Virus record (IMG/VR): IMGVR_UViG_3300047198_000026
Location: 1-64,000 of that record
Length of the DNA: 64,000 nucleotides
Strand: one strand, 5' to 3'
Origin: a virus
Part shown: one piece after another, positions 1,128 through 47,650 of the stretch
Position numbering within the stretch: position 1 is the first letter of the stretch
Layout: each line of letters starts with the position of its first letter
Notes under the pieces: generated by a model
Databases searched by the model: none
The model's input: only the letters and a program-made list of their open reading frames with translations
Told to the model about the DNA's origin: nothing
Made by a program: the position numbers and the translations under genes

Positions 1128-2138
1128 TCACTCTTCCTCCTCAAACTCTGGGGGAACAACTTGTTCCTCATAGGTATGTTCTACACCCGATCGTCCTTCA
1201 ATAATCTCCCTACTTATTCTGACCCTAATCTTCCAAGGTTTGGGCCAGGTCTCTTGGTGTCCATGCTTGTGAAGATGCTTTGAAAACTCTTTGGCGAACC
1301 TCTGCTTCTCTTGGTCAAGGCTGCTCTGATACTCCCCAACAAACTCAGGGATGATTTCCCAGCCTTTCTTGACATCAGTGGAGTCTGAGACATTAAGACG
1401 TTCCCCTTCCATCTTTTGTTTGATTCGGCCAGTCTGCCTTGGAGACATCTGCATCTTCTTGGCTAAAGATCGAATAGAGTCTGGAAGTTTACGTCCTCTT
1501 CCCCCTGCCCGAGAAACTGTAGCACCTGCCACACTTTCTGTACCTGGGAAGGGATCTAACCTCTCTAACTCCTCAACATACTTCCACCTTTGCTCTCCTG
1601 ACAACTGCCTTCTGGCAAAATTTGCCCTCAAACCCCTTGCCTTCATCATTCCTACGTCTTTCCTTGAGGTTCTGACTCCAGTCACATTGGCCTCTATAAT
1701 GGTAATCCCCAACTCTTTGGCTATCTTGACTCGCGAATATCCATCAATGATGACATAGCCTCCCCCATCTGAGGCATTATTCTCCATGACTGTGATGGGC
1801 AACTCAATCCCATACCTCTTGATGCTGTCCTTTAGGGTCTCATAGTCCTCTGGACATAGGGGATCGAAGTCCCTAATGTCATTAATATTATGGAGATCTT
1901 TATTCACATCCACGTCAATACGCCGATTGTCAGGGGCAAGACCACCCAGTTGCCTTTTGATCTCCATCATCATATCTCTTGCTTCAGCTACCTGACTTGG
2001 GGTGGCTACAATGTGACCATCAATGATTCTCTGATAGATCTCATAGGCCATTGATAAATCTCCAGCCTTAGTGGCCCTTACGGCCTCCTGAAAGAAACTA
2101 TTTACTATCTCCTGTGGCAAAACTCCTCTTCTTCCCAT
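1128..2138 (-). CDS. ParB/Srx N-terminal-domain DNA-binding protein
   Basis: LKDSIKRYGIELPITV...YVIIDGYSRVKIAKELG...NFARRQLS followed by HTH-like SIRSLAKKMQMSPRQ; start set at MGRRG after AGGAGG. Confidence 0.8.
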   Translation of the reverse strand: MGRRGVLPQEIVNSFFQEAVRATKAGDLSMAYEIYQRIIDGHIVATPSQVAEARDMMMEIKRQLGGLAPDNRRIDVDVNKDLHNINDIRDFDPLCPEDYETLKDSIKRYGIELPITVMENNASDGGGYVIIDGYSRVKIAKELGITIIEANVTGVRTSRKDVGMMKARGLRANFARRQLSGEQRWKYVEELERLDPFPGTESVAGATVSRAGGRGRKLPDSIRSLAKKMQMSPRQTGRIKQKMEGERLNVSDSTDVKKGWEIIPEFVGEYQSSLDQEKQRFAKEFSKHLHKHGHQETWPKPWKIRVRISREIIEGRSGVEHTYEEQVVPPEFEEEE

Positions 2139-2385
2139 ATTTACCTCCTTTTTTCCTATATTCTTTGTACTCACAAGTTCGAACCAGATTACAATCCCCA
2201 GTGTCTTTATTCCCATTCAAGGGGGCAATCTCTCTAATAGGAGATTTTCCACATGCTACCCAAATAAATCTACCAGGATCTTCCTTTCTCATCTTTTCAC
2301 AGACGCATCCTCTATTACCGTACCCGTCTGGTGTATCCCATTGGAAGTGGATACACTTTGTATATTGGTTCTCACTTATCTGCAT
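2098..2385 (-). CDS. Small Cys-rich protein, MxxSxN-tagged (MQISEN)
   Basis: ORF track; paralogous with 2376..2609 (C.H...G.RGCV). Confidence 0.65.
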   Translation of the reverse strand: MQISENQYTKCIHFQWDTPDGYGNRGCVCEKMRKEDPGRFIWVACGKSPIREIAPLNGNKDTGDCNLVRTCEYKEYRKKGGKYGKKRSFATGDSK

Positions 2386-2609
2386 GGTTCCTCAAGTTCC
2401 GCATACTTACATGTCTTTAATATTAAACATAGCATTGATTTGTCATGGCCCATCAGTCCGATAACCCCACTTGGAGATTCTATCTCTTCTCGAAAGGTCA
2501 TAGCAGAATCATGACTCTTTCTCAGACGAACACATCCTCTATGACCAGCCTTATCTTGTATAATAAGGTAGTGTTTGCAATTTCTATGTTTATTATAGCT
2601 TATCTGCAT
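2376..2609 (-). CDS. Small Cys-rich protein, MxxSxN-tagged (MQISYN)
   Basis: ORF track; shared N-terminal motif. Confidence 0.65.
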   Translation of the reverse strand: MQISYNKHRNCKHYLIIQDKAGHRGCVRLRKSHDSAMTFREEIESPSGVIGLMGHDKSMLCLILKTCKYAELEEPCR

Positions 2610-2613
2610 AACA

Positions 2614-2847
2614 TCACCGTACTCTTATTAAGTACCTCATGTTAACCTCAAATACCCACGGTTTTCTAAAATCGGGTGGTCCTCCTGTAAGGGTACTGAA
2701 GTTCACCATACATCTCCTATATCTCATCCTCCTAAGTACCAAACCCCTACTCCCTGATCTAGTGAAAGTATATGGTGCACCCCAGGTCACCATTACTTGA
2801 CATCCTTTTACAATTCTGTCACTTTTCCTATTCTTGCTTATCTGCAT
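2614..2847 (-). CDS. Small basic protein, MxxSxN-tagged (MQISKN)
   Basis: Internal ATG of track ORF 2614..2865 with GGAGG upstream. Confidence 0.65.
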   Translation of the reverse strand: MQISKNRKSDRIVKGCQVMVTWGAPYTFTRSGSRGLVLRRMRYRRCMVNFSTLTGGPPDFRKPWVFEVNMRYLIRVR

Positions 2848-3232
2848 GAGGACAGGTTCCTCCATTCCTTGACTTTCCTAAGTTGCAGTTATAACAGAGG
2901 GTTTGAAACTCCTCTGGAAACTTCTCCTTTATGACCCATGTGTACCAATCTTTTATCTTACCTTTAATCTCTCTTCTATGGACATTACCTGCCCCTTCTT
3001 TGTGGTCAAGGGTAAGGAACATTGGCTCATCTTCTCCACAGCATTGACATCGCCATCCGTAATGGTCAAGGACATCAATGGTCTGAGCCCATCGCCATGA
3101 GCCATTGGACAACTTGATAATCTTCTTACAACTTGGGCAGGACTCATAAATATACCCAATAGGAAGTATCCTTTCACAGTGAACACATTGATGTTTGGCT
3201 ATTCTTTCACTCTTGGTTTGTGCTGGTATCAT
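2828..3232 (-). CDS. HNH endonuclease
   Basis: CQCCG...LTLDH...FQTLCYNCN motif. Confidence 0.8.
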   Translation of the reverse strand: MIPAQTKSERIAKHQCVHCERILPIGYIYESCPSCKKIIKLSNGSWRWAQTIDVLDHYGWRCQCCGEDEPMFLTLDHKEGAGNVHRREIKGKIKDWYTWVIKEKFPEEFQTLCYNCNLGKSRNGGTCPHADKQE

Positions 3233-3240
3233 GTTCTCCT

Positions 3241-3489
3241 CTATAAAACTTTATCTTTTGACGATTCCCGTGAGTTCCCCTCTTTATCTAATAGTCCTTC
3301 CTGTTCTATAAAATCCTCTTTCGACGCCTCAACCCAGGAGCAAAAGACTGTATCAGTATGAGCACAGGCCCCAGGGCCACAATCCTTTTCCCTATGATTC
3401 AAAGGATAGTGGGGACACGTCTTCCTCGCACACCCCATAGCTCCCCTACCAATACACTTATATACTAATCTATTCTTCGATAAGTCCAT
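3241..3489 (-). CDS. Small Cys/His protein, MxxSxN-tagged (MDLSKN)
   Basis: ORF track; YxC...CPH motif. Confidence 0.65.
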   Translation of the reverse strand: MDLSKNRLVYKCIGRGAMGCARKTCPHYPLNHREKDCGPGACAHTDTVFCSWVEASKEDFIEQEGLLDKEGNSRESSKDKVL

Positions 3490-34748: not shown

Positions 34749-36749
34749 TTGGGAAATTTTGGTAACTATATTTACCGACCATCATTCGGAGCCTCGGGGA
34801 CATCTGAATACACCAACTTTGATACGGGATTGGCAAATGTAGACACAGAGGTTTCTTCAGGAGCTTATCATCGTCAGTTAACCACTAATGCTCATGGACT
34901 GACCTTTACTGGCCCAGGGGTAGGTGGGGGATTGGATGCTGATAAAGTAGATGGCTATCATGCTGCCTCCTTTTTGTTATCCGGGGGTATTGCAACTAGT
35001 GCTAGTGACTCTGCTAGGCTGGCAGGAGTCCTACCAGCAGGATATCTCTTGTCAGGAGGTACTTCTTTAAGTGCCTCTGACTCAGCCCGACTAGCAGGTA
35101 ACCTTTCGTCTGCTTTCCTTTTGTCAGGGGGGACAGCCTTAAGTGCCACTGACTCTTCTAGACTAGCTGGTAATCTTTCTACAGCTTTCTTAACAGTTGG
35201 TGGGTCAGCAGGTGACTCTGCCTTATTACAGGGAAACTTGGCGTCAGCCTTTCTGGGTGCCTCATCCAATGCTGTCAGTGCTAATGACTCTGCCAGACTG
35301 GCAGGTAACCTTTCGACAGCCTTCTTAGGAGCCAGTTCTAACGCAGTCAGTGCAAATGACTCTGTTAGACTTAATGGTAAACTTGATACGGCTTTCCTAG
35401 CCTATGATGCTAATGCAGTTAGTGCCAATGACTCCTCACGATTAGGGGGTAACCTACCTTCCGTATACACCAGGAAAGACGGCACAGTTGCCTTTACAGA
35501 CACGTTCTCTGGTACTAATGCCTATTTTACGGGAACGTTATCAGCCACTGCCTTATCAGCCGCTAACGTCTATACCACAGGCAACGTTGGCATAGGGACA
35601 GGGAGTCCTGCCCACACTCTAGATGTCAATGGCATTATGTCAGGTAGTACAGTCCTTGCTACTACCTTTTCAGGTACTAATGTCTATGCCACCACAATCA
35701 CGGCTAGTACAATGAGTGCCTCTGACTCTTTCCTCTTACTTGGTAAGACATTGGCAGAGGTAGTGGCCAGTGGGGGTGGTGCTGGAGACATGATGTCTGA
35801 TGGCACAGTTGCCTTCACAGACATGATGTCAGGTACCAGTGCTTACTTCTCTTCTTCCTTGTCTGCTTCGAAGTTTAGTGGGACGTCAACCAGTGCTGAC
35901 GATTCTACCTTACTATTTGGTAAGACATTGGCACAAGTAGTGGCCAGTGGGGGTGGGGGTTCAGGAGATGTTAAGTCTGATGGTACTGTTGCCTTTACTG
36001 ACATGCTGTCAGGTACTAGTGCCTACTTCTCGTCTTCAGTATCAGCTTCCAAGTTTAGTGGGACATCAACCAGTGCTGACGATTCCACCTTATTATTTGG
36101 AAAAACCTTGGCAGAGGTAGTGGCCAGTGGGGGTGGAGGAGCTGGAGATGTTAAGTCTGATGGTACTGTTGCCTTTACTGACATGCTGTCAGGTACCAGT
36201 GCTTACTTTTCGTCAACCATATCGGCAGCAGGGTTCTCTGGAACAGCAGCCAGTGCTTCTGACTCAGCCATGTTACAGGGGAATCTTGCGTCAGCATTCT
36301 TAGGAGCCAGTTCTACGGCTTTATCCGCCAATGATTCCACCCTATTATTTGGTAAAACATTGGCACAGGTAGTAGCCAGTGGTGCTGCATGTATAGTTTG
36401 GAGCGTCCCAGGAACTTTAGTTGCAAATGCAACAGTTTCAGTATGTTCTCAATTTTATATACCATTTGATTGTACTGCGGTAGGCGTGAATTTAATTGTT
36501 ACAACTACTCCAGGAACTAATGCAGACATAATAGATATCCATTATGGAGCAGCAGGAGGGATTGGAACAACTATTTTTAGTACGAAACCACAGATTAATG
36601 CTGGTGCATATACTGGTGGGGGTGCGGCAGCGTTTTCGGAAACGGCCCTTGCTGCAGGCAACATGTTAACAATGTTTATTGACCAAATCGGAGCAGCTGG
36701 AAATGAAGGAAAATTCCTTACTGTAGAGCTGAAAGTGAGCGTGCCATAA
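34749..36749 (+). CDS. Tail fibre/spike protein with internal repeats
   Basis: GLDADKVDG, GNVGIGT..P..TLDVNG; DSARLAG repeats and three about 60-aa repeats. Confidence 0.8.
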   Translation: MGNFGNYIYRPSFGASGTSEYTNFDTGLANVDTEVSSGAYHRQLTTNAHGLTFTGPGVGGGLDADKVDGYHAASFLLSGGIATSASDSARLAGVLPAGYLLSGGTSLSASDSARLAGNLSSAFLLSGGTALSATDSSRLAGNLSTAFLTVGGSAGDSALLQGNLASAFLGASSNAVSANDSARLAGNLSTAFLGASSNAVSANDSVRLNGKLDTAFLAYDANAVSANDSSRLGGNLPSVYTRKDGTVAFTDTFSGTNAYFTGTLSATALSAANVYTTGNVGIGTGSPAHTLDVNGIMSGSTVLATTFSGTNVYATTITASTMSASDSFLLLGKTLAEVVASGGGAGDMMSDGTVAFTDMMSGTSAYFSSSLSASKFSGTSTSADDSTLLFGKTLAQVVASGGGGSGDVKSDGTVAFTDMLSGTSAYFSSSVSASKFSGTSTSADDSTLLFGKTLAEVVASGGGGAGDVKSDGTVAFTDMLSGTSAYFSSTISAAGFSGTAASASDSAMLQGNLASAFLGASSTALSANDSTLLFGKTLAQVVASGAACIVWSVPGTLVANATVSVCSQFYIPFDCTAVGVNLIVTTTPGTNADIIDIHYGAAGGIGTTIFSTKPQINAGAYTGGGAAAFSETALAAGNMLTMFIDQIGAAGNEGKFLTVELKVSVP

Positions 36750-37042
36750 TGGGAATGCCAAGTTGTATATGCGACATGGCTGTAAATACTTGTTCATGTA
36801 ATGTGGCTGTATATGATTGTTCATGTAATCAGACTACATACGGCTCATGTATTTGTTATTCAACATGTGCAAGTGCATATCACACCTGCTACAAGGATTT
36901 CGAATGTGGTTGTTTTTGGTTTTGGTATAGTTGTAGTGTATGCTACAATACAGTTTATGGTTGTAGTGTATGCTACAATACAGTTTATGGTTGTAATTGT
37001 TATAATCTAAAATATGCTCCAGATGTTTGGTTGTTTTATTAG
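36749..37042 (+). CDS. Cys/Tyr-rich repeat peptide, putative radical-SAM substrate
   Basis: 18 Cys in 97 aa in CxC/CxxC-x4-Y units; TAATG overlap with the fibre gene. Confidence 0.75.
   Translation: MGMPSCICDMAVNTCSCNVAVYDCSCNQTTYGSCICYSTCASAYHTCYKDFECGCFWFWYSCSVCYNTVYGCSVCYNTVYGCNCYNLKYAPDVWLFY
36931..36990 (+). repeat. Perfect 30-bp tandem duplication (CSVCYNTVYG twice)
   Basis: TTGTAGTGTATGCTACAATACAGTTTATGG twice. Confidence 0.95.
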
Positions 37043-37051
37043 GAGATAAAT

Positions 37052-37720
37052 ATGTTGCAGGAAATTGAAATCAAAAGAATGTTACCAATGGGCGGAATTA
37101 CAATCGAGAATTTTGTTTACAAAGATGTAGCCGATACATCCGAAGAGACGAGGGCTGCATTTCAGAAAGAGGTGGGACAATGGAAAGAAGATAACAAAGA
37201 ATTATTAAATAAAGCTAGGGAGACTATGCAAACATATGCGACACCTCCACTTTTATGGGCAGCTGCTGTTTACATATTTTTAAGAGAAGAACTTGTCGGC
37301 ATAATATTTTTTGATAAATGGGAAACTCATTTGGAAAATGAGATAACAATGAAATTCCATCCGTCAATTAAATTTAGAGCAACCTTTGATTATGCGTTGT
37401 CTGAAGCTTTATTTAGAGATTACATTTTTGAAAATAATTTAATGAATACTATTTATGCTATCCTTCCGTTATGGAGAAAGGGGAATTCTTTTGAATTTCC
37501 ATGTGCTAAGTCTACAGCACCCTGGACAACTGGTAATCCCTATGATTATTCAACCACTAAAATACTTTCAGAAGATATTAAAAATAACGGAATCATGATT
37601 GAAATACATCAGTCTAAGAAGGATTGGTTTCCTGGAAAGTTTGCACAATTAACCAGGAAAACTTGGCAAATTCCGACAAGCGAGCATACAATCGAATTAC
37701 CAAAGGAGGTAAAGAAATGA
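37052..37720 (+). CDS. rSAM partner protein 1 (possible GNAT-like fold)
   Basis: Paralog of 42158..42874; ATGA-coupled to rSAM A1. Confidence 0.65.
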   Translation: MLQEIEIKRMLPMGGITIENFVYKDVADTSEETRAAFQKEVGQWKEDNKELLNKARETMQTYATPPLLWAAAVYIFLREELVGIIFFDKWETHLENEITMKFHPSIKFRATFDYALSEALFRDYIFENNLMNTIYAILPLWRKGNSFEFPCAKSTAPWTTGNPYDYSTTKILSEDIKNNGIMIEIHQSKKDWFPGKFAQLTRKTWQIPTSEHTIELPKEVKK

Positions 37721-38787
37721 GCAGTTATGCATTGATCTGTCACATTTTTATGACCTATGGATGTAACCGTAATTGTGAAGGGTGTTATACTAATCTGCAG
37801 GCAGATAGAAATTTGAAAATGTCAATAAAGACAGCTGATGATGTGGCGAAATGGCTCGTAAACTTAGCCAAAGTAGAGGAAGCAGAATTGTTTTCATTTC
37901 CGATACTTGGTGGGGAACCTTTAATGAATGCTGATGTGCTGTTTCATCTGATAGCGACTTTGCAAAGAGATTTACCAAAACATCTGAAAAATGTCCGAGC
38001 AAGGACAGGGGCGTCGGGAGTCAATGTAAAGAATGAGGATCGTCTCTTTATTCTATTTACTAACGGAGATTATTTGACGGAAGAAAATCTTAGAAGAATA
38101 GAAGCCCATAGATTGTTGGCCTACATTAATCCTACAGATGATAATCTCATCAGTGTGGAAGAGAAGGTTAAGAAATTGAAAGCAGTATGCGGGCATTGCA
38201 ATTTAGCAATTACACTGAATAAAAAGAATATGCCAAGGCTACCAGAGTTGGTTGATATTGCTATTAGAAATGGTGGAGTAACACGGATCAGTCGGATGTA
38301 TGATGGTGGTAGAGACCCAAATTACGTAAAGGAATATGGAAGACAGATGCACAAGGTATTTGATATGCTATTAGCTGCTCCAGTTCCCATGCATCCAAAT
38401 TGGATAGTTGAGAGCACCTGGGTGACCTGGGACAAACCATCAAATCCAAATGGTTGCGGAAAATGGTCTATTCATATGGGCCCAGACGGAGTAATCCGAA
38501 GTTGTAATGCTGATTACAGTACTAAGATTGGTTCAATCTACACTCATTCCAGATTGTCTGATTTTAAGTTTACTCATAGATGGAGTGCAAAGAATTTACC
38601 TGAGTGTCAAGGCTGTGAATTTATAACCTTTTGTCAAGGTGGTTGTCCTTATAGTCGTAAGTTGACTTACGGAACTTACGACAAGAGAACTCCATTTTGT
38701 GAGGAGCTGAAAACTCTTTACCCAAGGGTGCTTGAATTGGCTAAAAAATGGAAAGAATACCAAGAACGTATAATGAAAGGAGAATAA
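37717..38787 (+). CDS. Radical SAM/SPASM protein, class A copy 1
   Basis: CNRNCEGC, GGEP, TNG; SPASM CG...G.IRSC...CQGC...CQGGCP...C. Confidence 0.92.
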   Translation: MSSYALICHIFMTYGCNRNCEGCYTNLQADRNLKMSIKTADDVAKWLVNLAKVEEAELFSFPILGGEPLMNADVLFHLIATLQRDLPKHLKNVRARTGASGVNVKNEDRLFILFTNGDYLTEENLRRIEAHRLLAYINPTDDNLISVEEKVKKLKAVCGHCNLAITLNKKNMPRLPELVDIAIRNGGVTRISRMYDGGRDPNYVKEYGRQMHKVFDMLLAAPVPMHPNWIVESTWVTWDKPSNPNGCGKWSIHMGPDGVIRSCNADYSTKIGSIYTHSRLSDFKFTHRWSAKNLPECQGCEFITFCQGGCPYSRKLTYGTYDKRTPFCEELKTLYPRVLELAKKWKEYQERIMKGE

Positions 38788-38789
38788 AT

Positions 38790-39965
38790 ATGTTAGTTTC
38801 CAATGCGTCATTAAACTTGACTCAAGAATGTAATTTAAGATGTGAATATTGTTTTACGTATGGGCACACATCTAAACGGATGAGTTGGGCTGTCGCAAAA
38901 AAGAGCGTAGATTTTCTTTTCAATAATGCTAAACGTACAAAAGAAAATAAAATGGTTAGAATAGATTTTTGGGGAGGGGAGCCACTATTAGAATGGAATT
39001 TGTTGAAGAAGATAACTTTGTATGCAGAAAGTGTATCGAAAAGAACCACCATTCCTGTGCATTTTGGTGGAACGACCAATGGTACACTCCTAACTGAAGA
39101 GAAATTTACATTTTTGGGAAAACATGGTATTAAGTTTTTGGTATCTCTTGATGGCACGGCAGAAAGTCACAATAAATATAGGGTATTTAGATCTGGTAGG
39201 GGGTCTCACGCTCTAATAGTAAAAAATATGAAGAAGGTTTTGAAGAAATGGCCTGATTATGCTGTAAGATTATCCCCTTATCCAGAAAGTATTAAACGAT
39301 TTTATAACGACATTAAATTCTTAATAGATCTGGGTTTTAGGAATGTAATGTATAGTCCTGTATTTGAGGCAAACTGGAAAGAGAAAGATTGGAATAAATG
39401 GGAAGATGAAGGTTATAAAGTAGTGGATTTATTATCCGAAAAGAAGAGAGAAGGGATCAATATTTTTATTCATCAGTTTGATGAATTTTGTGGTCAGGAG
39501 TTGGATCAAAAATACCCTTGTGGAGCGGGGAGGCATTATATTGGGATTGACATAGATGGAGGAATATATCCTTGTCATCGATTTTGTAAATTTGATGGAA
39601 AATCTTGGAAAGAAAAGGAAACTTGTATCGGTCATGTAGACTTGGGTATCATTAATCTTGAATTTATAGATAGGTTTATTAATTTTAAAACCTGTGAAGG
39701 ATGCGAGTTTGCTAACACTACTCCTTGCTGTGGTGGTTGCCCAGCGACTAATTATGATCTCACAGGAGATATAAATACACCCACAGATAAGAATTGTAGA
39801 TGGATTAAGGTACAAACCAAAATTTCCAGATACATGATGGAGAAAGAAAATCTGAAAAGAACAACCCCACAAGCGGTTATGGATTTATTAAGACGGCTTG
39901 AAATGCGGGTGGAGCAAATAGAAAAATATATCGAGGATAAAAACAATTTATCCACGGTTACTTGA
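38790..39965 (+). CDS. Radical SAM/SPASM protein, class B copy 1
   Basis: CNLRCEYC, FWGGEPLL, TTNGTLL, VSLDG, PCGAG...IYPCH...CEGC...CCGGCP. Confidence 0.93.
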   Translation: MLVSNASLNLTQECNLRCEYCFTYGHTSKRMSWAVAKKSVDFLFNNAKRTKENKMVRIDFWGGEPLLEWNLLKKITLYAESVSKRTTIPVHFGGTTNGTLLTEEKFTFLGKHGIKFLVSLDGTAESHNKYRVFRSGRGSHALIVKNMKKVLKKWPDYAVRLSPYPESIKRFYNDIKFLIDLGFRNVMYSPVFEANWKEKDWNKWEDEGYKVVDLLSEKKREGINIFIHQFDEFCGQELDQKYPCGAGRHYIGIDIDGGIYPCHRFCKFDGKSWKEKETCIGHVDLGIINLEFIDRFINFKTCEGCEFANTTPCCGGCPATNYDLTGDINTPTDKNCRWIKVQTKISRYMMEKENLKRTTPQAVMDLLRRLEMRVEQIEKYIEDKNNLSTVT

Positions 39966-40079: not shown

Positions 40080-41330
40080 ATGACTGAATTTCCAATTACC
40101 AGATGTAGTATTAATTTGACTAGGGCCTGCAATCTTAAGTGTGCCTTTTGCTTTACCTACGGATGCCGTCCTGGCAGAATGGGATGGGAAACGGCCAAGA
40201 GATCGGTCGACTTCCTATTTCACAATGCCGAGAAGGCCACCATCCAAGAAGGAAAGACTGTTGAGATAGGATTTTGGGGAGGGGAGCCACTATTAGAATG
40301 GGAATTATTGAAGAGGATAACCCTGTATGCGAAGAAGACGAAACCCCCATCAGTGAATCTGATGTTTGGTGGAACGACCAATGGTACACTCCTGACCCCT
40401 GACAAATTTGCCTTCCTGGATGAACACAAGATATTCTTTATGGTCAGTATAGACGGGCAAGAGAAGAGCCACAACCTATACCGTAAGTTCCATGATGGAA
40501 GGGGTTCACATTCAGTGGTAATGAAGAACCTGGAGTCCATCCTAAAGAAATGGCCTTTCTATAGAGCCCGGTTGTCTCCCAGTGTGGAAACAGTCCCTGA
40601 CTTCTTTGAGAATATGAAATACCTCTTTGACTTTGGATTCGAATATGTTATGTTCTCTCCTGTCTATGAAGGCAATTGGACTCCTGAGGTGTGGAAGACA
40701 TATGAGGACCAATGTAAGTTGGTAGTGGATTACATGGTGTCAGAGAAGGCCAAGGGAAGGAATTTGAAAGTAGAACACTTCGAATCCTATAAGGGTTCTG
40801 ACAATTCTAAATGGCCATGTGGGGCTGGAAGGTTCTATGCGGGAATAGACATTGATGGGGCCATCTATCCTTGCCACAGATTTAACAAGTTTAATGACAT
40901 GCGACCATGGACTGAAAAGGAAGTTTGTATTGGACATGTGGATGTTGGAATCACCAAACCAGACTTTAGAAAGTTATTCACCACAGACTGGAAGCCTGAA
41001 TGTGGAGAGTGTCCAAGACTTAAGGACACACCTTGTCATGGGGGATGTTACGCAGTGAACTTCGACTTTACAGGAAAGATTAATACACCCCATCTAGGAC
41101 TTTGTTCCTATGTTGAGATGCAAAGAAATGTCTCAAAATACTTGGAAGAGAAACTTCCTTCCCCACCCCAACAGGGAACAAGGGGTTGTATTTGTTATAA
41201 TATGTGTTACGCTGAGGGAACAGACCAAGAGATTACTCATAGGGACAAATCGAATGATATGACGTGCGTGTGCTATAACGCCCAATATAATGGGCCTTTG
41301 GATGAGAAAATTGCTAGGAGGCTTATATAA
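40080..41330 (+). CDS. Radical SAM/SPASM protein, class B copy 2, with Cys-rich C-terminal extension
   Basis: CNLKCAFC, FWGGEPLL, PCGAG, IYPCH, CGEC...CHGGC; tail CICYNMCY...CVCYNAQY. Confidence 0.93.
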   Translation: MTEFPITRCSINLTRACNLKCAFCFTYGCRPGRMGWETAKRSVDFLFHNAEKATIQEGKTVEIGFWGGEPLLEWELLKRITLYAKKTKPPSVNLMFGGTTNGTLLTPDKFAFLDEHKIFFMVSIDGQEKSHNLYRKFHDGRGSHSVVMKNLESILKKWPFYRARLSPSVETVPDFFENMKYLFDFGFEYVMFSPVYEGNWTPEVWKTYEDQCKLVVDYMVSEKAKGRNLKVEHFESYKGSDNSKWPCGAGRFYAGIDIDGAIYPCHRFNKFNDMRPWTEKEVCIGHVDVGITKPDFRKLFTTDWKPECGECPRLKDTPCHGGCYAVNFDFTGKINTPHLGLCSYVEMQRNVSKYLEEKLPSPPQQGTRGCICYNMCYAEGTDQEITHRDKSNDMTCVCYNAQYNGPLDEKIARRLI

Positions 41331-42137
41331 GTGATAGCCATTCTTATTCAAAAAGAGCCCTATCCTATCCATGAGGGCCATAAGGCCGTAATCAACTATG
41401 CCCGGTCTTTGGGTGATCCGATAGTTATTATGCCCCCTCACGCAGGTATGTGGCATAAATACCTAAAAGGGGGAATAGAGGAAGTAGGAGAAGAGAATAT
41501 TGATGTTAGGATAAACTCTATAAAAGAATTAGGTATTCCAGTTGAGCGAATGCGCCCTGTCTCGGTTCACAAGGATATAAGACAAAAGGCATTAGATTTT
41601 GCCTCTGCCTTTATGGAACCTTATAAAGACACATTAATTTTAGACAGGTATATTCAAGTGGCAACCTTGCTTGTGGCAGGGACACACCTAAGACGTAAGA
41701 TATGGAAAGACCAGATGTTGAAGTCCAAAATCCCCATTGAAGCCGCGGCTAGGGGTCCGTCAGTGATATCCTTCTTTCTTGCCCAAGTAAATCCCAAGTT
41801 GGGTAGGCCCCCTTGTTATGTGTACCCTAAAATAGTTAAAGACCCTCGTACAGGAATTCAATTCCAGAGTTCTATAAATCAGATTTTGGGTTCACACAGG
41901 CCAGCCTTAGAAAGACTTCCCATGGTGCTTGGAGAATTTAAGGATAGGTTGAAAGTGGGAAGAAATTTAGAATTAGAGAAGGAGATTAATGGATCTTACT
42001 ACTATACTCCCTGGAAAATCCAGGAGATTGCTGTGTTTGAAGGGGGTATGGTTCCTGGAAGATTAGAAGTTGTATCCTTTAGGTTTCCCTGTTTAAGAGG
42101 GAGTATACTAATTGAGGTAACTGAGTATTATCAGTAA
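41331..42137 (+). CDS. HxGH nucleotidyltransferase-superfamily protein, pantothenate-synthetase-like
   Basis: IHEGH near the N-terminus; IVKDPRTGIQFQSS resembles PanC IVRExDGLAxSSRN. Confidence 0.55.
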   Translation: MIAILIQKEPYPIHEGHKAVINYARSLGDPIVIMPPHAGMWHKYLKGGIEEVGEENIDVRINSIKELGIPVERMRPVSVHKDIRQKALDFASAFMEPYKDTLILDRYIQVATLLVAGTHLRRKIWKDQMLKSKIPIEAAARGPSVISFFLAQVNPKLGRPPCYVYPKIVKDPRTGIQFQSSINQILGSHRPALERLPMVLGEFKDRLKVGRNLELEKEINGSYYYTPWKIQEIAVFEGGMVPGRLEVVSFRFPCLRGSILIEVTEYYQ

Positions 42138-42157: not shown

Positions 42158-42874
42158 ATGTTTCAGTTAAAGGGTTGTTCAAGGTTAATACCTAGGGGAG
42201 GAGTTGTCATTCGTGGGATGTCCTATATAGACGTCAATGATGTCCTTCTTGAAGACAGGATGGCAACTAAGAAGTTTTTCGCTGAAGATTATGAGTACGG
42301 TGAGGCCGTTAGGAGAGGGTTAGCTCATTATAGAACTATGGAAATAGGTAGGCAATTTATTGTTTACGTTTATAAAAATCTGGACCTTCTAGGATGCCTC
42401 CTAAGTTTTGAACTACTTAATAACATGGATGGATATGGTAAGGGAGACTTTAATCATTCCCAATTAATCTATCCTAAATACAGGCATACCCAATTTTCTA
42501 GGTACTCATCACTAAACTTTAGGCACATGATGTTCCGGTCTGGAGTAGCCAATAAAATATATGTCTATGCTCCCTCTTCTAGATCAAAATCGCATTCCTT
42601 TCTAGATGCGATGGATGTGTCTAAAATGCCTTGTGCATCAGGATTACCATTTGAATTTATTGATATCCGATTTTCGGAGCACATCTCAGTTTCAAAAAGA
42701 TTACATCTTGAGGGAGTCCCTTTTCTTATTCTGGAATTTGATGGTGAGAAATATAGGAAGCTGACTTTAGATGATTTTGCAGAGAGTGTCCCCAATAAGG
42801 GTAAGGAACTTGTAGCCCAGTGGTTATCTGAGGCCGACCATGCGTCTGAATTGGTCAGAGGAGAGGTAAAATGA
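42158..42874 (+). CDS. rSAM partner protein 2 (possible GNAT-like fold)
   Basis: Paralog of 37052..37720; IYPKYRHT resembles GNAT motif A; ATGA-coupled to rSAM A2. Confidence 0.65.
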   Translation: MFQLKGCSRLIPRGGVVIRGMSYIDVNDVLLEDRMATKKFFAEDYEYGEAVRRGLAHYRTMEIGRQFIVYVYKNLDLLGCLLSFELLNNMDGYGKGDFNHSQLIYPKYRHTQFSRYSSLNFRHMMFRSGVANKIYVYAPSSRSKSHSFLDAMDVSKMPCASGLPFEFIDIRFSEHISVSKRLHLEGVPFLILEFDGEKYRKLTLDDFAESVPNKGKELVAQWLSEADHASELVRGEVK

Positions 42875-43905
42875 TGCCTGCGTTGATGCTATATATAAAT
42901 ATCTCTAATGCTTGTAATCGGCAGTGTGATCATTGCTATTCCTCCAATACTGGTGAGAAGATGAGTAAAGAAACAGTTGGGGAAGTGGTTAAGTGGGCTA
43001 AAGGTATTTGCGAGGAGGAGAAAGTTAAATATCTCAAATTAATTTTCTTAGGAGGGGAACCTCTAAATAATATAGATAACCTTTTGCTGATGGTTGACTT
43101 ATTCAATAAGCACCTTCCTCAGCTTCAAGATCCTTTTTGGGATACTAAGTATATGTTGTCCACGAATGGTGATTTGATCACTGATTCTATTCTAAGAGAA
43201 CTGAAGAGCAGGAGAATTTGGGTATCGCTGAATCCGTCAAACAGTAGTATGGGAGACCTTGAAGATAAGATATTAAAGGTTAAAGAAGTGAATGGAGGGT
43301 GTGCATTACTTACGGTGTTAAACGACGCGAATTTGCCAAGAGCCGTGGATCTGGCTAAATTGGCAGTTAGGCATGCCTGTTTTATTAGAATGAATAGGAT
43401 GTTTCAAGGGTCATCAGATCCAGAATACATTAGAGAGTACGGTAGTCAATTGGGCAAAATGATGGACATCTTCCTTGCTGCCAAGAGGGTAGCCTGGCCT
43501 AACTGGATGGTAGATTCTACTATGCCTGTAAGGTTTGCTGACATTTATTCCCAGACAACCAGAAATTGTTATTCTTGTGGTGAGTGGCTCTTTACCATCG
43601 ATTGGGATGGGATGATAAGAAGTTGTAACGCTGATCCTGATACGGTTATTGGGTATATTAGAACTCACAAGCATAGGAAGGATTTTAAATTCCCCCATAG
43701 GTGGAGTGCTGCAAATCTTCCAGAGTGTCAAGGCTGTAAGTGGATTGTTTTGTGTCAGGGTGGATGCCCTTACTGTAGAAAAGTAGCGTATGGTACGTAC
43801 GACAAGAAAACTCCATTTTGTGAGGTGCACAGGGATATCTGGCCTAAACTTATGGAACTTACGGAGAGATGGAAATTAAGTCATAGTGGGTTGTTTACAC
43901 GATGA
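42871..43905 (+). CDS. Radical SAM/SPASM protein, class A copy 2
   Basis: CNRQCDHC, GGEP; HRWSA.NLPECQGC...CQGGCPY shared with A1. Confidence 0.92.
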   Translation: MMPALMLYINISNACNRQCDHCYSSNTGEKMSKETVGEVVKWAKGICEEEKVKYLKLIFLGGEPLNNIDNLLLMVDLFNKHLPQLQDPFWDTKYMLSTNGDLITDSILRELKSRRIWVSLNPSNSSMGDLEDKILKVKEVNGGCALLTVLNDANLPRAVDLAKLAVRHACFIRMNRMFQGSSDPEYIREYGSQLGKMMDIFLAAKRVAWPNWMVDSTMPVRFADIYSQTTRNCYSCGEWLFTIDWDGMIRSCNADPDTVIGYIRTHKHRKDFKFPHRWSAANLPECQGCKWIVLCQGGCPYCRKVAYGTYDKKTPFCEVHRDIWPKLMELTERWKLSHSGLFTR

Positions 43906-43915
43906 GAGGAAAAAT

Positions 43916-44335
43916 ATGGACAATAAATATGTAGCAGGCTTGTTTGATGGAGAAGGGTACATAACAATATCTAGGTATAAAAGACCAGAAACCGGTACCA
44001 TGCACTATAGTCCTCAAATTGGAATATCAATGTGTTGGAAACCAACTCTAGAAGAGATGAAAGAACAGTTTGGTGGGTCTCTTCGTAAGCACAAGTTGTT
44101 GAAAGGGAAGACGATCTGGAGATGGGTAATCTATAATGGACAGGCCAAGAACTTTTTAGAAGTCATCCTACCTGAACTAAGGGAAAAGAGGTCTCAGGCA
44201 GTTCTAATTATGGATTATTATATAAATCTTGAATCTAGGGGTAAGTCTAAAATTCGGTTATCCGAGTCTGAAGTTGGAACTAGAGAGAAGTACTATCGCG
44301 ATCTCAAAGGTCTAAAGAAAATGGAGTGGGTGTAA
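43916..44335 (+). CDS. LAGLIDADG homing endonuclease (free-standing)
   Basis: YVAGLFDGEGYI...FGG...WRW...ILPELREKRSQA. Confidence 0.85.
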   Translation: MDNKYVAGLFDGEGYITISRYKRPETGTMHYSPQIGISMCWKPTLEEMKEQFGGSLRKHKLLKGKTIWRWVIYNGQAKNFLEVILPELREKRSQAVLIMDYYINLESRGKSKIRLSESEVGTREKYYRDLKGLKKMEWV

Positions 44336-45784: not shown

Positions 45785-47650
45785 ATGTCCTTATTTAGAA
45801 CAGGATATCCGTCATCTATCCACAAAATATATGAAATTCCTGGTGTAACCCAAGAAAACTTTGATGCTATAGAAGACTGGTCTGGTATTGAGCATTCAAG
45901 TTTGACCTCTGCTTCTTCTGGGCAACATGTGGCTGGGGGAGCAGGAGTCGTTTATGTGGGTAAAACACTGGACATTTCTGAATTATCTCCGGCCTCTGGG
46001 GCTATGGTTAGGAATCGTCAGACGGGTACCTTTGGGAAATACGACGGATTAGACTTCTATGGGATATGGGCAAATAAGTACTCTCGGGCTCGGGCCACCT
46101 TGTCAGGGGCGGTATTTCCCCTAACGGCAGACTGGCAAGGTAGGTTTGACTGTAACCAGATTTTGTGGGACTCCTTACATGAATTTCACATTGATCCAGC
46201 GGACGCATTATCTGGATCATTTACTCCCTGTGCCGATGGGTTCTATCATGTTATTGCTAGTTTTGCCATCTCAGCAGCTAATACACAAGTAACAACTAAC
46301 ACATCACGACCCTCTGGAAATGGAACTGTACAGTGGATTCCCAGTGGATATGGGGTAGGTTATAATTATAAGAACGTGTGGGAATATCCTAGTGTTAGCG
46401 ACGAAATGCACTATTTTAATGAGTCAGCAACATCTGGAGTATATGATTCCTTTAATCTATCTCCCGCAGCCACTGGAGGACCTGCAGGATCTTCTTCTGT
46501 TGTTATAGGAGCAACTTGGAGAGTTCGGCTTCGGAATGGAAGTTGTGCTTGTAATAATACGTGTTACCATGATATTACCACCTGCACTTGTAATAATTCC
46601 TGCTATGAAGATACGGCCTGCACCTCCTGTGATATGACATGTTACCAACAGGGAAGTTGCACATGTAATAACTCGTGCTATGGTCAGGCTGGATGTACCT
46701 GTAATAACACCTGTTATAGCCAAACGTGCACGACCTGTAATGCCACCTGTTATAGTCAAACGTGCACATGTAATTATACCTTATATGGACCTCATTGTAA
46801 CACATGCTACATTACGTGCTATTGGTTTGCTTGGTGCAAAGGTGATCAGAGCTGCACCTGTAATAATACCTGTTATGGGGGATTCACCTGCACCTGTAAT
46901 AATTCATGCTATGGACAATCCTGTACCTGTAATAGCACTTGTTATCAACAGCAATGTGCCTCTTGTTATAATACTTGTTATGGGTATAGTGGATCTTGCA
47001 CCTGTAATAGTTCGTGTTATGGACAAGGCTCTTGCACTTGTAATAATTCTTGCTATGGTGATACCCCTTGTTCCTGTGATGTAACCACCTACGGGTATTC
47101 TCATTCGTGTGAATGTGATGCGTCTCAGTATCTAGGAGTTTTCCAAATTGCTCCTGAGATATATGATTCCGCTTTAGGTTGGGCAAGGGGGACACTAACA
47201 TCCATAGCTGGAACAGCATATGGAGAATATACATATGTATGGGACACTGACCCTTTTAGAACCGCCGACTGGACAGCTGAGACTGCCTCAGGAATTACAA
47301 GTATAGCATATCGCCTGTTTACTCCCTACACGGCTGCCTGTGGAGTGTCGGCTGATGTGAGCCAATTTTATTTAAGCCAATCTTGGTTTCCTGTAAGACC
47401 CGTGTTGCGTTTGCAGATAGTAACGAATGAAGCAAATGCGTCCTCTTCGGTGGTGGCCCAGACTCAAGAGACCATTGCAGAAGCAGGGGCAGAAAGTTAT
47501 CAAACTGTCTCTCTATCCACTATAGTTCCTCTCAAAGGCGGAGACAGGCTTAGTTTTAAGGTTAGGAAAACCCGAATTGATGATATGAGTACAAATAATT
47601 ATGCCTATTCCTTTGTGAGTGTGCATCGGTTAGGGGGTCAGTGGATTTAA
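45785..47650 (+). CDS. Virion appendage protein with C1q-like domain interrupted by a Cys-rich repeat insert (paralog 3)
   Basis: ENFDAIEDW..IEH...SGQH; FTPCADGFYHV...[insert]...VPLKGGDRLSF. Confidence 0.75.
   Translation: MSLFRTGYPSSIHKIYEIPGVTQENFDAIEDWSGIEHSSLTSASSGQHVAGGAGVVYVGKTLDISELSPASGAMVRNRQTGTFGKYDGLDFYGIWANKYSRARATLSGAVFPLTADWQGRFDCNQILWDSLHEFHIDPADALSGSFTPCADGFYHVIASFAISAANTQVTTNTSRPSGNGTVQWIPSGYGVGYNYKNVWEYPSVSDEMHYFNESATSGVYDSFNLSPAATGGPAGSSSVVIGATWRVRLRNGSCACNNTCYHDITTCTCNNSCYEDTACTSCDMTCYQQGSCTCNNSCYGQAGCTCNNTCYSQTCTTCNATCYSQTCTCNYTLYGPHCNTCYITCYWFAWCKGDQSCTCNNTCYGGFTCTCNNSCYGQSCTCNSTCYQQQCASCYNTCYGYSGSCTCNSSCYGQGSCTCNNSCYGDTPCSCDVTTYGYSHSCECDASQYLGVFQIAPEIYDSALGWARGTLTSIAGTAYGEYTYVWDTDPFRTADWTAETASGITSIAYRLFTPYTAACGVSADVSQFYLSQSWFPVRPVLRLQIVTNEANASSSVVAQTQETIAEAGAESYQTVSLSTIVPLKGGDRLSFKVRKTRIDDMSTNNYAYSFVSVHRLGGQWI
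46544..47131 (+). repeat. 16 degenerate C-x(1,2)-C-x3-[C/x]-Y repeats (46 Cys in 196 aa)
   Basis: Manual count; consensus CTCNNSCY. Confidence 0.95.

Follow-up and report, generated by a model that had tools for sequence, protein, structure and literature searches.

A conserved substrate-like module at the C-terminus of a phage-encoded radical SAM/SPASM enzyme

The window analyzed here is the first 64 kb (64,000 nucleotides) of the 102,592-base virus record IMGVR_UViG_3300047198_000026 from IMG/VR, which has a CheckV completeness of approximately 50%. A virion module spans 33.7–49.3 kb of this window. It encodes virion structural proteins recognized with PHROGs (p245, t243 and p550), and four genes for radical S-adenosylmethionine (SAM)/SPASM enzymes of two kinds, A (A1 and A2) and B (B1 and B2), lie inside it. 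The last approximately 45–47 residues of B2 form a conserved module on a hypervariable tether. Two 8-residue motifs of the form C-x-C-[Y/N]-N-x-x-Y, CICYNMCY and CVCYNAQY (hereafter the first and second heads), are joined in this module by a hairpin-like spacer. The heads resemble repeat units of two other products of the window, a 97-aa Cys/Tyr peptide and a 621-aa virion protein (gene 45785–47650) with a Cys-repeat insert. The coordinates of these features are listed in Table 1.

B2, encoded by the phage, belongs to the CteB/PapB-like, thioether-forming branch of the radical SAM/SPASM enzymes. It scores 59.1 bits against the radical SAM superfamily model PF04055 (gathering cut-off 29.5) and contains the CxxxCxxC motif, which is retained in every homologue covering that region. 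The seven SPASM cysteines (C247, C265, C308, C311, C319, C323, and C342; pattern C..G-x4-C, gap, CxxC-x5-7-C-x3-C, gap, C) are conserved, and an eighth cysteine in this region, C283, is kept in 102 of 117 homologues (87%). The top NCBIfam match is the PapB family NF047865 (232.6 bits over residues 9–337, cut-off 340). Matches to the SCIFF maturase TIGR03974 (142.6 bits, cut-off 425) and QhpD TIGR03906 (137.7 bits, cut-off 453) are lower. The families nearest to B2 (PapB, SCIFF, CcpM, the CXXX-repeat family, and QhpD) are all thioether-forming maturases, and every score is below the curated cut-off, so that B2 is a member of none of them. B1 likewise stays under the PapB cut-off with 251.8 bits. 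In the AlphaFold2 (AF2) model of B2, residues 1–360 have a predicted local distance difference test score (pLDDT) above 95. The best fold match is the thermocellin thioether synthase CteB (PDB 5WHY/5WGG; TM score 0.74, 24% identity), followed by anSME, with alignments of about 365–390 columns. CteB, which also combines a radical SAM barrel with a SPASM domain, is the best sequence match among solved structures as well (E 4e-29). Residues 10–343 of B2 align with CteB residues 100–436, and the cluster motif of B2 already begins at residue 17. B2 is thus missing the N-terminal, leader-reading recognition element (RRE; PqqD-like) of leader-dependent maturases of peptides that are synthesized ribosomally and modified post-translationally (RiPPs), which takes up approximately 95 residues in CteB. 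CteB in turn lacks both a Cys-rich tail and an equivalent of C283, and its chain ends about 17 residues past the last SPASM cysteine, compared with 74 residues in B2. No close relative was found in cultured phages; the best matches are 24–30% identical and come from unannotated gut phage contigs. The public gene call for B2 (P0001, 383 aa; also an ESM Atlas record) begins at Met34 (window 40080–40181). A start at Met34 would remove the CxxxCxxC motif, and the ATG at 40080 yields a complete enzyme.

An earlier note on this DNA, made by reading the sequence, had reported the two motifs behind the SPASM domain of B2, their absence from B1, and look-alikes in the peptide and in the virion insert. 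All of these observations were confirmed, and the positions of both motifs are exact. The motifs lie beyond the SPASM domain, as the Pfam and NCBIfam family models end by residue 359 and the first head starts 28 residues after C342, the last SPASM cysteine. B1 shares 51% identity with B2 across 355 residues; its last cysteine is C350, and the helical tail that follows is cysteine-free. The look-alikes CICYSTC (36848–36868) and CNCYNLKY (36992–37015) were found in the 97-aa peptide and CASCYNTCY (46955–46981) in the 621-aa protein. The likelihood of a chance match was estimated with the pattern CxCxxxx[Y/F] over 113 open reading frames (ORFs) of at least 100 aa in the window (24,307 residues). 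The pattern occurs exclusively in the 97-aa peptide (4 matches), B2 (2 matches), and the 621-aa protein (12 matches), and is absent from the remaining 22,931 residues of the window ORFs. Two or more matches were obtained in 0.33% of 200,000 shuffles of B2. Conservation in dozens of homologues settles that the B2 motifs are beyond chance. Translation of a separate tail peptide from an internal start was also considered and judged unlikely; the sole Shine-Dalgarno-like stretch (41179–41184) is 17 nt from the in-frame ATG at 41202.

Table 1. Features of the B2 gene, its C-terminal tail and related genes in the window
Feature	Position	Strand	Basis
B2, radical SAM/SPASM enzyme, 416 aa, without N-terminal RRE	40080..41330	+	PF04055, NCBIfam, AF2, CteB match
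CxxxCxxC of radical SAM cluster (C17, C21, C24)	40128..40151	+	read from sequence
SPASM cysteines C247, C265, (C283), C308, C311, C319, C323, C342	40818..41105	+	sequence, homologue alignment
Hypervariable Pro/Gly/Gln-rich linker, residues 359–369	41154..41186	+	identity 0.13, pLDDT ~60
First head CICYNMCY, residues 370–377; family consensus C-[IV]-C-[YNH]-N-M-C-Y	41187..41210	+	
Conserved spacer A-E-G-T-x-x-E-I-x-x-x-D..., predicted beta-hairpin	41211..41264	+	alignment A3, AF2 strands
Second head CVCYNAQY, residues 396–403; consensus C-x-C-[YN]-N-[TA]-x-Y-[TS]-G	41265..41288	+	
Module end N-G-P-L-D-x-x-I-A-R-R-L-I	41289..41327	+	homologue comparison
97-aa Cys/Tyr peptide, second-head-type units CSCNVAVY, CSCNQTTY, CNCYNLKY, CSVCYNTVY (twice)	36749..37042	+	
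Cys-repeat insert of 621-aa virion protein, first-head-type units C-[ST]-C-N-x-x-C-Y	46544..47131	+	
B1, tail-less B2 paralogue, C-terminal helix kept	38748..39965	+	sequence; core tree position (P0098)
A1, radical SAM/SPASM gene	37624–38787		
A2, radical SAM/SPASM gene	42871–43905		

A total of 534 B2 homologues were retrieved at E <1e-10, all of them metagenomic, and the best 120 of the 534 were surveyed for tails. Both heads are present in 54 of these, the second only in 32, the first only in 4, and none in 30, so that 90 carry at least one head. The module consensus reads C-[IV]-C-[YNH]-N-M-C-Y, [LA]-E-G-T-x-x-E-[IV]-x-x-x-D, C-x-C-[YN]-N-[TA]-x-Y-[TS]-G, and x-x-D-x-x-x-A-R. The distance between the starts of the two heads is 25 or 26 residues in each of 53 sequences. 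Alignment A3 shows no variation at the spacer residues E, G, T, E, and D, and alignment A1 shows none at C396, C398, Y403, and G405. The first tail cysteine lies 27–31 residues past the last SPASM cysteine in approximately 70% of members, one-head and two-head alike. Most homologues have a coiled-coil helix after the tail, which is missing from B2. Among 34 two-head homologues, the mean pairwise identity is 0.54 in the tail (0.42 without the pattern-defining positions) and 0.49 in the core, compared with 0.13 in the linker, measured over the 12 residues preceding the tail. In a core-only tree, the two-head state occupies the deepest branches and B1 falls in a tail-less clade. The tail is thus probably an old module rather than a recent copy, and B1-like enzymes appear to have lost it, a polarity that depends on the midpoint rooting of this FastTree phylogeny.

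These results bear on the possibility that the tail is only left over, without a function, from fusion of the enzyme gene to a substrate gene downstream of it. A presumed substrate gene does lie directly 3' of the enzyme gene at loci L020, L154, and L156, and the two reading frames overlap in L154. However, the tail is conserved like the core across lineages whose cores are only 35–60% identical, with the adjacent linker free to vary, and the deepest branches of the tree already carry it. A mere relic is therefore very improbable. A 26-residue tandem duplication as the origin of the two heads was rejected, as their likeness is confined to the 8-residue heads and positions 9–20 are no more alike than after column shuffling, with 3,175 of 20,000 shuffles reaching the observed score. 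Core residues that track the presence of the tail (355, 345, 348, 233, 114, 320, 324, and others) are scattered and confounded by phylogeny.

In the full AF2 model of B2, the linker has a pLDDT of about 60, residues 371–390 reach 74, and the second head 53–62. Strands 375–377 and 385–387 form a hairpin in this model. Folded alone from an 18-row alignment, the tail has a pLDDT of 47 and no secondary structure. The tail module is thus not predicted as an autonomous domain.

The number of cysteines in the tail is variable. The commonest form has five conserved cysteines, arranged as CxCxxxC and CxC. Reduced tails contain one head with 2 cysteines, or a C-M-P-Y remnant and one head with 3 cysteines, and three-headed tails exist in a few homologues. 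Such a cysteine-rich segment could bind a fourth Fe–S cluster or zinc, either to form a structural knob or to relay electrons to the auxiliary clusters, and the repeats would then be metal-binding too. The five cysteines of the commonest form speak for such a site, and the CxC and CxCxxxC spacings resemble metallothionein-type motifs. A module that is unfolded alone in AF2 could also be cofactor-dependent, and intermolecular electron transfer has been proposed for PapB (PMC10470005). However, the tails have 2, 3, or 5 cysteines and one to three heads across sub-clades, and no common set of at least 3–4 ligand cysteines is shared by all tail bearers. A fixed metal site is less likely for this variation, and the invariant Tyr, Asn, and Gly are not ligands. 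The module is, in addition, constantly accompanied by presumed radical SAM substrates of the same pattern. Taken together, a metal-binding tail is improbable.

The whole module appears to be restricted to these enzymes. A tail-only profile searched against 1.84 billion representative proteins retrieved 27 matches, of which 26 are C-termini of radical SAM proteins (several with inteins) or contig-edge fragments thereof. The 27th (1,728 aa) is a spurious low-complexity match without CxC. No free-standing tail module was found among the 1.84 billion proteins, the short matches being fragments of radical SAM genes, and no match to the module was found in Pfam or the ESM Atlas. Only the 8-residue head, not the module as a whole, is common to the enzyme and to free-standing proteins. 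Among 185,579 species genomes, one real tail match was found, on a 9.8-kb contig of a metagenome-assembled genome (MAG) with a Cys-repeat gene just upstream. The tail profile is a useful marker that singles out this phage system specifically.

Cys-rich virion proteins or small peptides with 4 to more than 40 head-pattern units each accompany the enzymes in related phages. For a tally, viral, MAG, and metagenome loci with at least 6 kb of flank were pooled and near-duplicates removed, leaving 27 tailed and 8 tail-less loci. An automated count found a Cys-repeat protein at 22 of the 27 tailed loci. Inspection added L018 and L145, whose CxxC-type units had escaped the automated pattern. In L012, the repeat protein lies 23 kb from the tailed enzyme in the same record, and in the L100 lineage the repeats lie 25 kb off, in a viral record sharing the L100 tail DNA. 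The sole tailed locus without an assigned repeat protein is L014, a fragment that starts 800 nt before the gene. Hence, 26 of the 27 tailed loci have a Cys-repeat protein in the same or a near-identical record, compared with repeats nearby at 4 of the 8 tail-less loci. The earlier note held that its interpretation would fall if the tail were a generic Fe–S site in homologues without such substrates, which is not what these loci display. The distant repeat genes of the two lineages (G001:C1:56575–57054 and G006:C1:26884–29782) indicate that the system need not form a single cassette. The first 17 viral loci had suggested that tailed enzymes go with a large virion insert and tail-less enzymes with small upstream peptides. 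This was rejected, as small repeat proteins are encoded directly upstream of many two-head enzymes in the metagenome loci (L097, L103, L105, L109, L140, L143, and L152).

The likeness between heads and repeats was examined position by position. The consensus of 89 substrate units is C-[ST]-C-N(71%; D 15%, Y 10%)-[NAS]-[TAS]-C(76%)-Y-G. In the tail, Asn occupies position 5 in 98% of the first heads and 76% of the second heads. Positions 4 and 5, which were left free in the search pattern, are composed alike in the two heads, with Y or N followed by N. With this spelling, C-x-C-[Y/N]-N, the heads match the minor 'CYN' sub-type of the repeats (CASCYNTCY, CNCYNLKY, and CTCYNTCY) and not the main CxCNNxCY type.

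Tentatively, we favor a tail that serves as a substrate-type unit on a tether and engages the substrate site of its own enzyme, being either self-cross-linked or a pseudosubstrate. Core-level conservation behind a free linker, occurrence on the enzyme only, variable heads and cysteines, invariant Tyr, Asn, and Gly, and the constant company of repeats fit such a unit better than a fixed metal site. Substrate units would have been fused onto the enzyme, an origin suggested by the three loci in which a substrate gene directly follows the enzyme gene. The module would then fold back to reach the substrate site of its own enzyme or of a partner subunit. In this position it could be cross-linked once by the enzyme, as in the self-modification of borosin- or BURP-type fused-core enzymes, or it could fill the site as a pseudosubstrate until displaced by a real repeat. 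A substrate cysteine binds an auxiliary cluster in PapB and Tte1186 (PMC10177961), and SPASM enzymes are able to cross-link whole proteins, as CrpC does on CrpA with its repeated cysteine motifs (PMC13692751). By analogy with these systems, such a mechanism is plausible. The earlier note had taken the tail as the strongest internal link between the enzymes and the repeats. This part holds, as the tail is built from a substrate-type unit and links the enzyme to repeats in essentially all testable related phage loci. The tail is not, however, peculiar to B2 but an ancient and widely kept module, and it does not track the spelling of the local repeats. Of the mechanisms that the note had offered (self-modification, an autoinhibitory mimic, and docking or metal sharing), a fixed metal site alone became less probable, owing to the varying cysteine number.

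Several observations weigh against a substrate-type unit in the active site. The conserved Asn is at position 5 in the tail and at position 4 in the repeats, and position 2 is I/V in the first head and S/T in the repeats. In L013, L016, L018, and L094, the repeats mostly have N/D at position 8 and the tails keep Tyr, with no co-variation. The tail thus appears from these alignments to be under its own constraint and not to copy the local repeats. It also seems dispensable, since tail-less enzymes in L011, L015, and L120 sit beside repeat proteins as well, and at least 8 to 11 events of tail loss are required on the core tree. The higher pLDDT of the tail in the context of full B2 may merely reflect alignment depth (117 vs 18 rows). 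It cannot be assumed that auxiliary cluster I has an open iron site to receive a tail thiolate, given C283 as an eighth conserved cysteine that is lacking in CteB. Finally, thioether formation by B2 is itself a prediction from the nearest families and the fold.

Some of the same evidence concerns a different role, in which the tail would act outside the active site as a docking adaptor. It would pack unit-against-unit with the substrate repeats, replace recognition through an RRE and a leader, and hold the enzyme on a long repetitive substrate. B2 has no RRE, and its presumed substrates are either small repeat proteins or inserts without a leader in large virion proteins. The unit head is common to tail and repeats, the coiled-coil helix after the tail in many homologues could suit oligomeric fibers, and repeats accompany nearly all testable tailed loci compared with half of the tail-less ones. 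However, the tail-less B1 and the enzymes in L011, L015, and L120 adjoin repeat proteins and are presumably functional without a tail, the tail does not co-vary with repeat spelling, and there is no evidence of repeat units pairing with each other. On this balance, a docking adaptor is rather unlikely.

The tethered substrate-type unit has its nearest concepts in fused-core RiPP enzymes (borosins and BURP cyclases) and in kinase pseudosubstrates. Borosin N-methyltransferases (OphMA type) and BURP-domain peptide cyclases carry their own substrate in the same polypeptide and modify themselves, and split versions exist. The fused core of these enzymes, their only or main substrate, is set free as the product. 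B2 resembles them in having substrate-type sequence in the same polypeptide, with CxC[Y/N]NxxY heads that match the neighboring repeat units. It differs in its unrelated chemistry and fold, in having large separate presumed substrates, and in that no split form of the module was found among the 1.84 billion proteins. Protein kinase pseudosubstrates (PKC and the PKA regulatory subunit) are tethered stretches on a flexible linker that are similar to the substrate consensus but lack the reactive residue. The tail of B2, on an enzyme of a different class, shares the resemblance and the flexible tether but retains Cys and Asn, the latter at position 5 and not 4. To our knowledge, no pseudosubstrate-type gate is known in radical SAM maturases.

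Among radical SAM/SPASM enzymes, the freyrasin ranthipeptide maturase PapB makes several Cys-X3-Asp thioethers in a repetitive core, and the tail heads and 'CYN' repeats have Cys-X3-Asn spacing. PapB, however, uses a leader peptide and Asp/Glu as acceptor and has no substrate-like tail. CrpC of Methanococcus voltae, likewise a SPASM radical SAM enzyme, introduces ranthionine cross-links into CrpA, a large, adjacently encoded protein with a repeated cysteine motif (PMC13692751). Unlike B2, CrpC is archaeal rather than viral, has an RRE, and belongs to family TIGR04463; CrpA has an N-terminal leader-like region, and no copy of the motif borne by the enzyme has been reported. In the literature, neither a phage radical SAM system of this kind nor a radical SAM maturase with a substrate-like tail was found.

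Guidance of radical SAM/SPASM maturases normally comes from a leader and an RRE. The phage enzymes described here have neither, appear to act on repeats within structural proteins, and mostly bear a conserved tethered repeat unit. Should the tail prove to be a self-substrate or a gate, it would be a new regulatory or recognition device for a large enzyme class, and it would offer a simple experimental handle in which the enzyme supplies its own minimal substrate. A bolder proposal is that B2-type enzymes are self-modifying radical SAM enzymes, whose tail is cross-linked in cis or across an oligomer and then serves as a primer or handle for leaderless virion repeats. This proposal is rather unlikely; if true, the radical SAM superfamily would gain its first fused-core arrangement, and RiPP-type enzymes a novel means of dispensing with leader and RRE.

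The gene neighborhoods and repeat proteins of related loci have further features. A homologue of the 621-aa protein occurs in the same gene order in L004, L006, and L007. This order equals the right half of the cassette in the window: p245, (fiber), tailed B, 268-aa protein, X, A, t243, t238, Cys-repeat protein, and p550. The 268-aa gene (window 41331–42137) directly follows B2, and in every close relative (L004, L006, L007, and L009) it adjoins or overlaps the tailed B gene. No homologue of it was found within 10 kb in the distant two-head lineages L012–L014 and L018. Its product has no solved relative and shows only a weak match, to a nucleotidyltransferase HxGH domain (TIGR00125, E 0.0024). 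The small peptides of the window, L011, and L015 have K-Y-A-P-x-x-W-[LM]-F at or near the C-terminus. The repeat proteins of distant lineages (L013:7168–8025, L016:4611–8922, L018:207–1067, L094:1–483, and L145:2274–3389) are made of units C-x-C-[ND]-G-x-C-[ND]-x-D or C-x-x-C-N-x-T-C, and all five terminate in A-Y-[RQE]-Y-P-W-[TSA]. In L005 (9989–12206), the gene after a tail-less B-type gene encodes a 621-aa protein homologue that has only 3 cysteines and no repeat insert, and no repeats were found within this 15.9-kb fragment. The complete 42-kb phage of L008 carries a tail-less B gene; at 1458–3440, a small number of Cys units lie across the boundary between two neighboring tail-protein ORFs. 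The first ORF ends …CSCYGQYGRTACQTCDVAHY, and the next opens with more units. The two ORFs may be one gene split by a frameshift or a sequencing error.

The enzymes themselves vary beyond the tail. Inteins with HNH or LAGLIDADG endonucleases interrupt many B-type homologues (P0052, P0096, P0115, P0127, P0129, P0137; L015:1449–3119; L129, L141, L167, and L174). Free-standing LAGLIDADG genes are found at varying positions of the cassette, for example at 43886–44335 in the window and in L004–L007. A tail-less clade (P0104, P0105, P0110, and P0111) has lost the CxxC-x7-C of the SPASM motif, leaving a 'GCPAxNFD' remnant, and may have a reduced, twitch-like domain. Two tailed B-type genes occur in some phages (L016:9920–15128, L127, and L136), and one of the L016 tails extends into an extra Cys/Lys-rich stretch (…ECKGECCKCKK).

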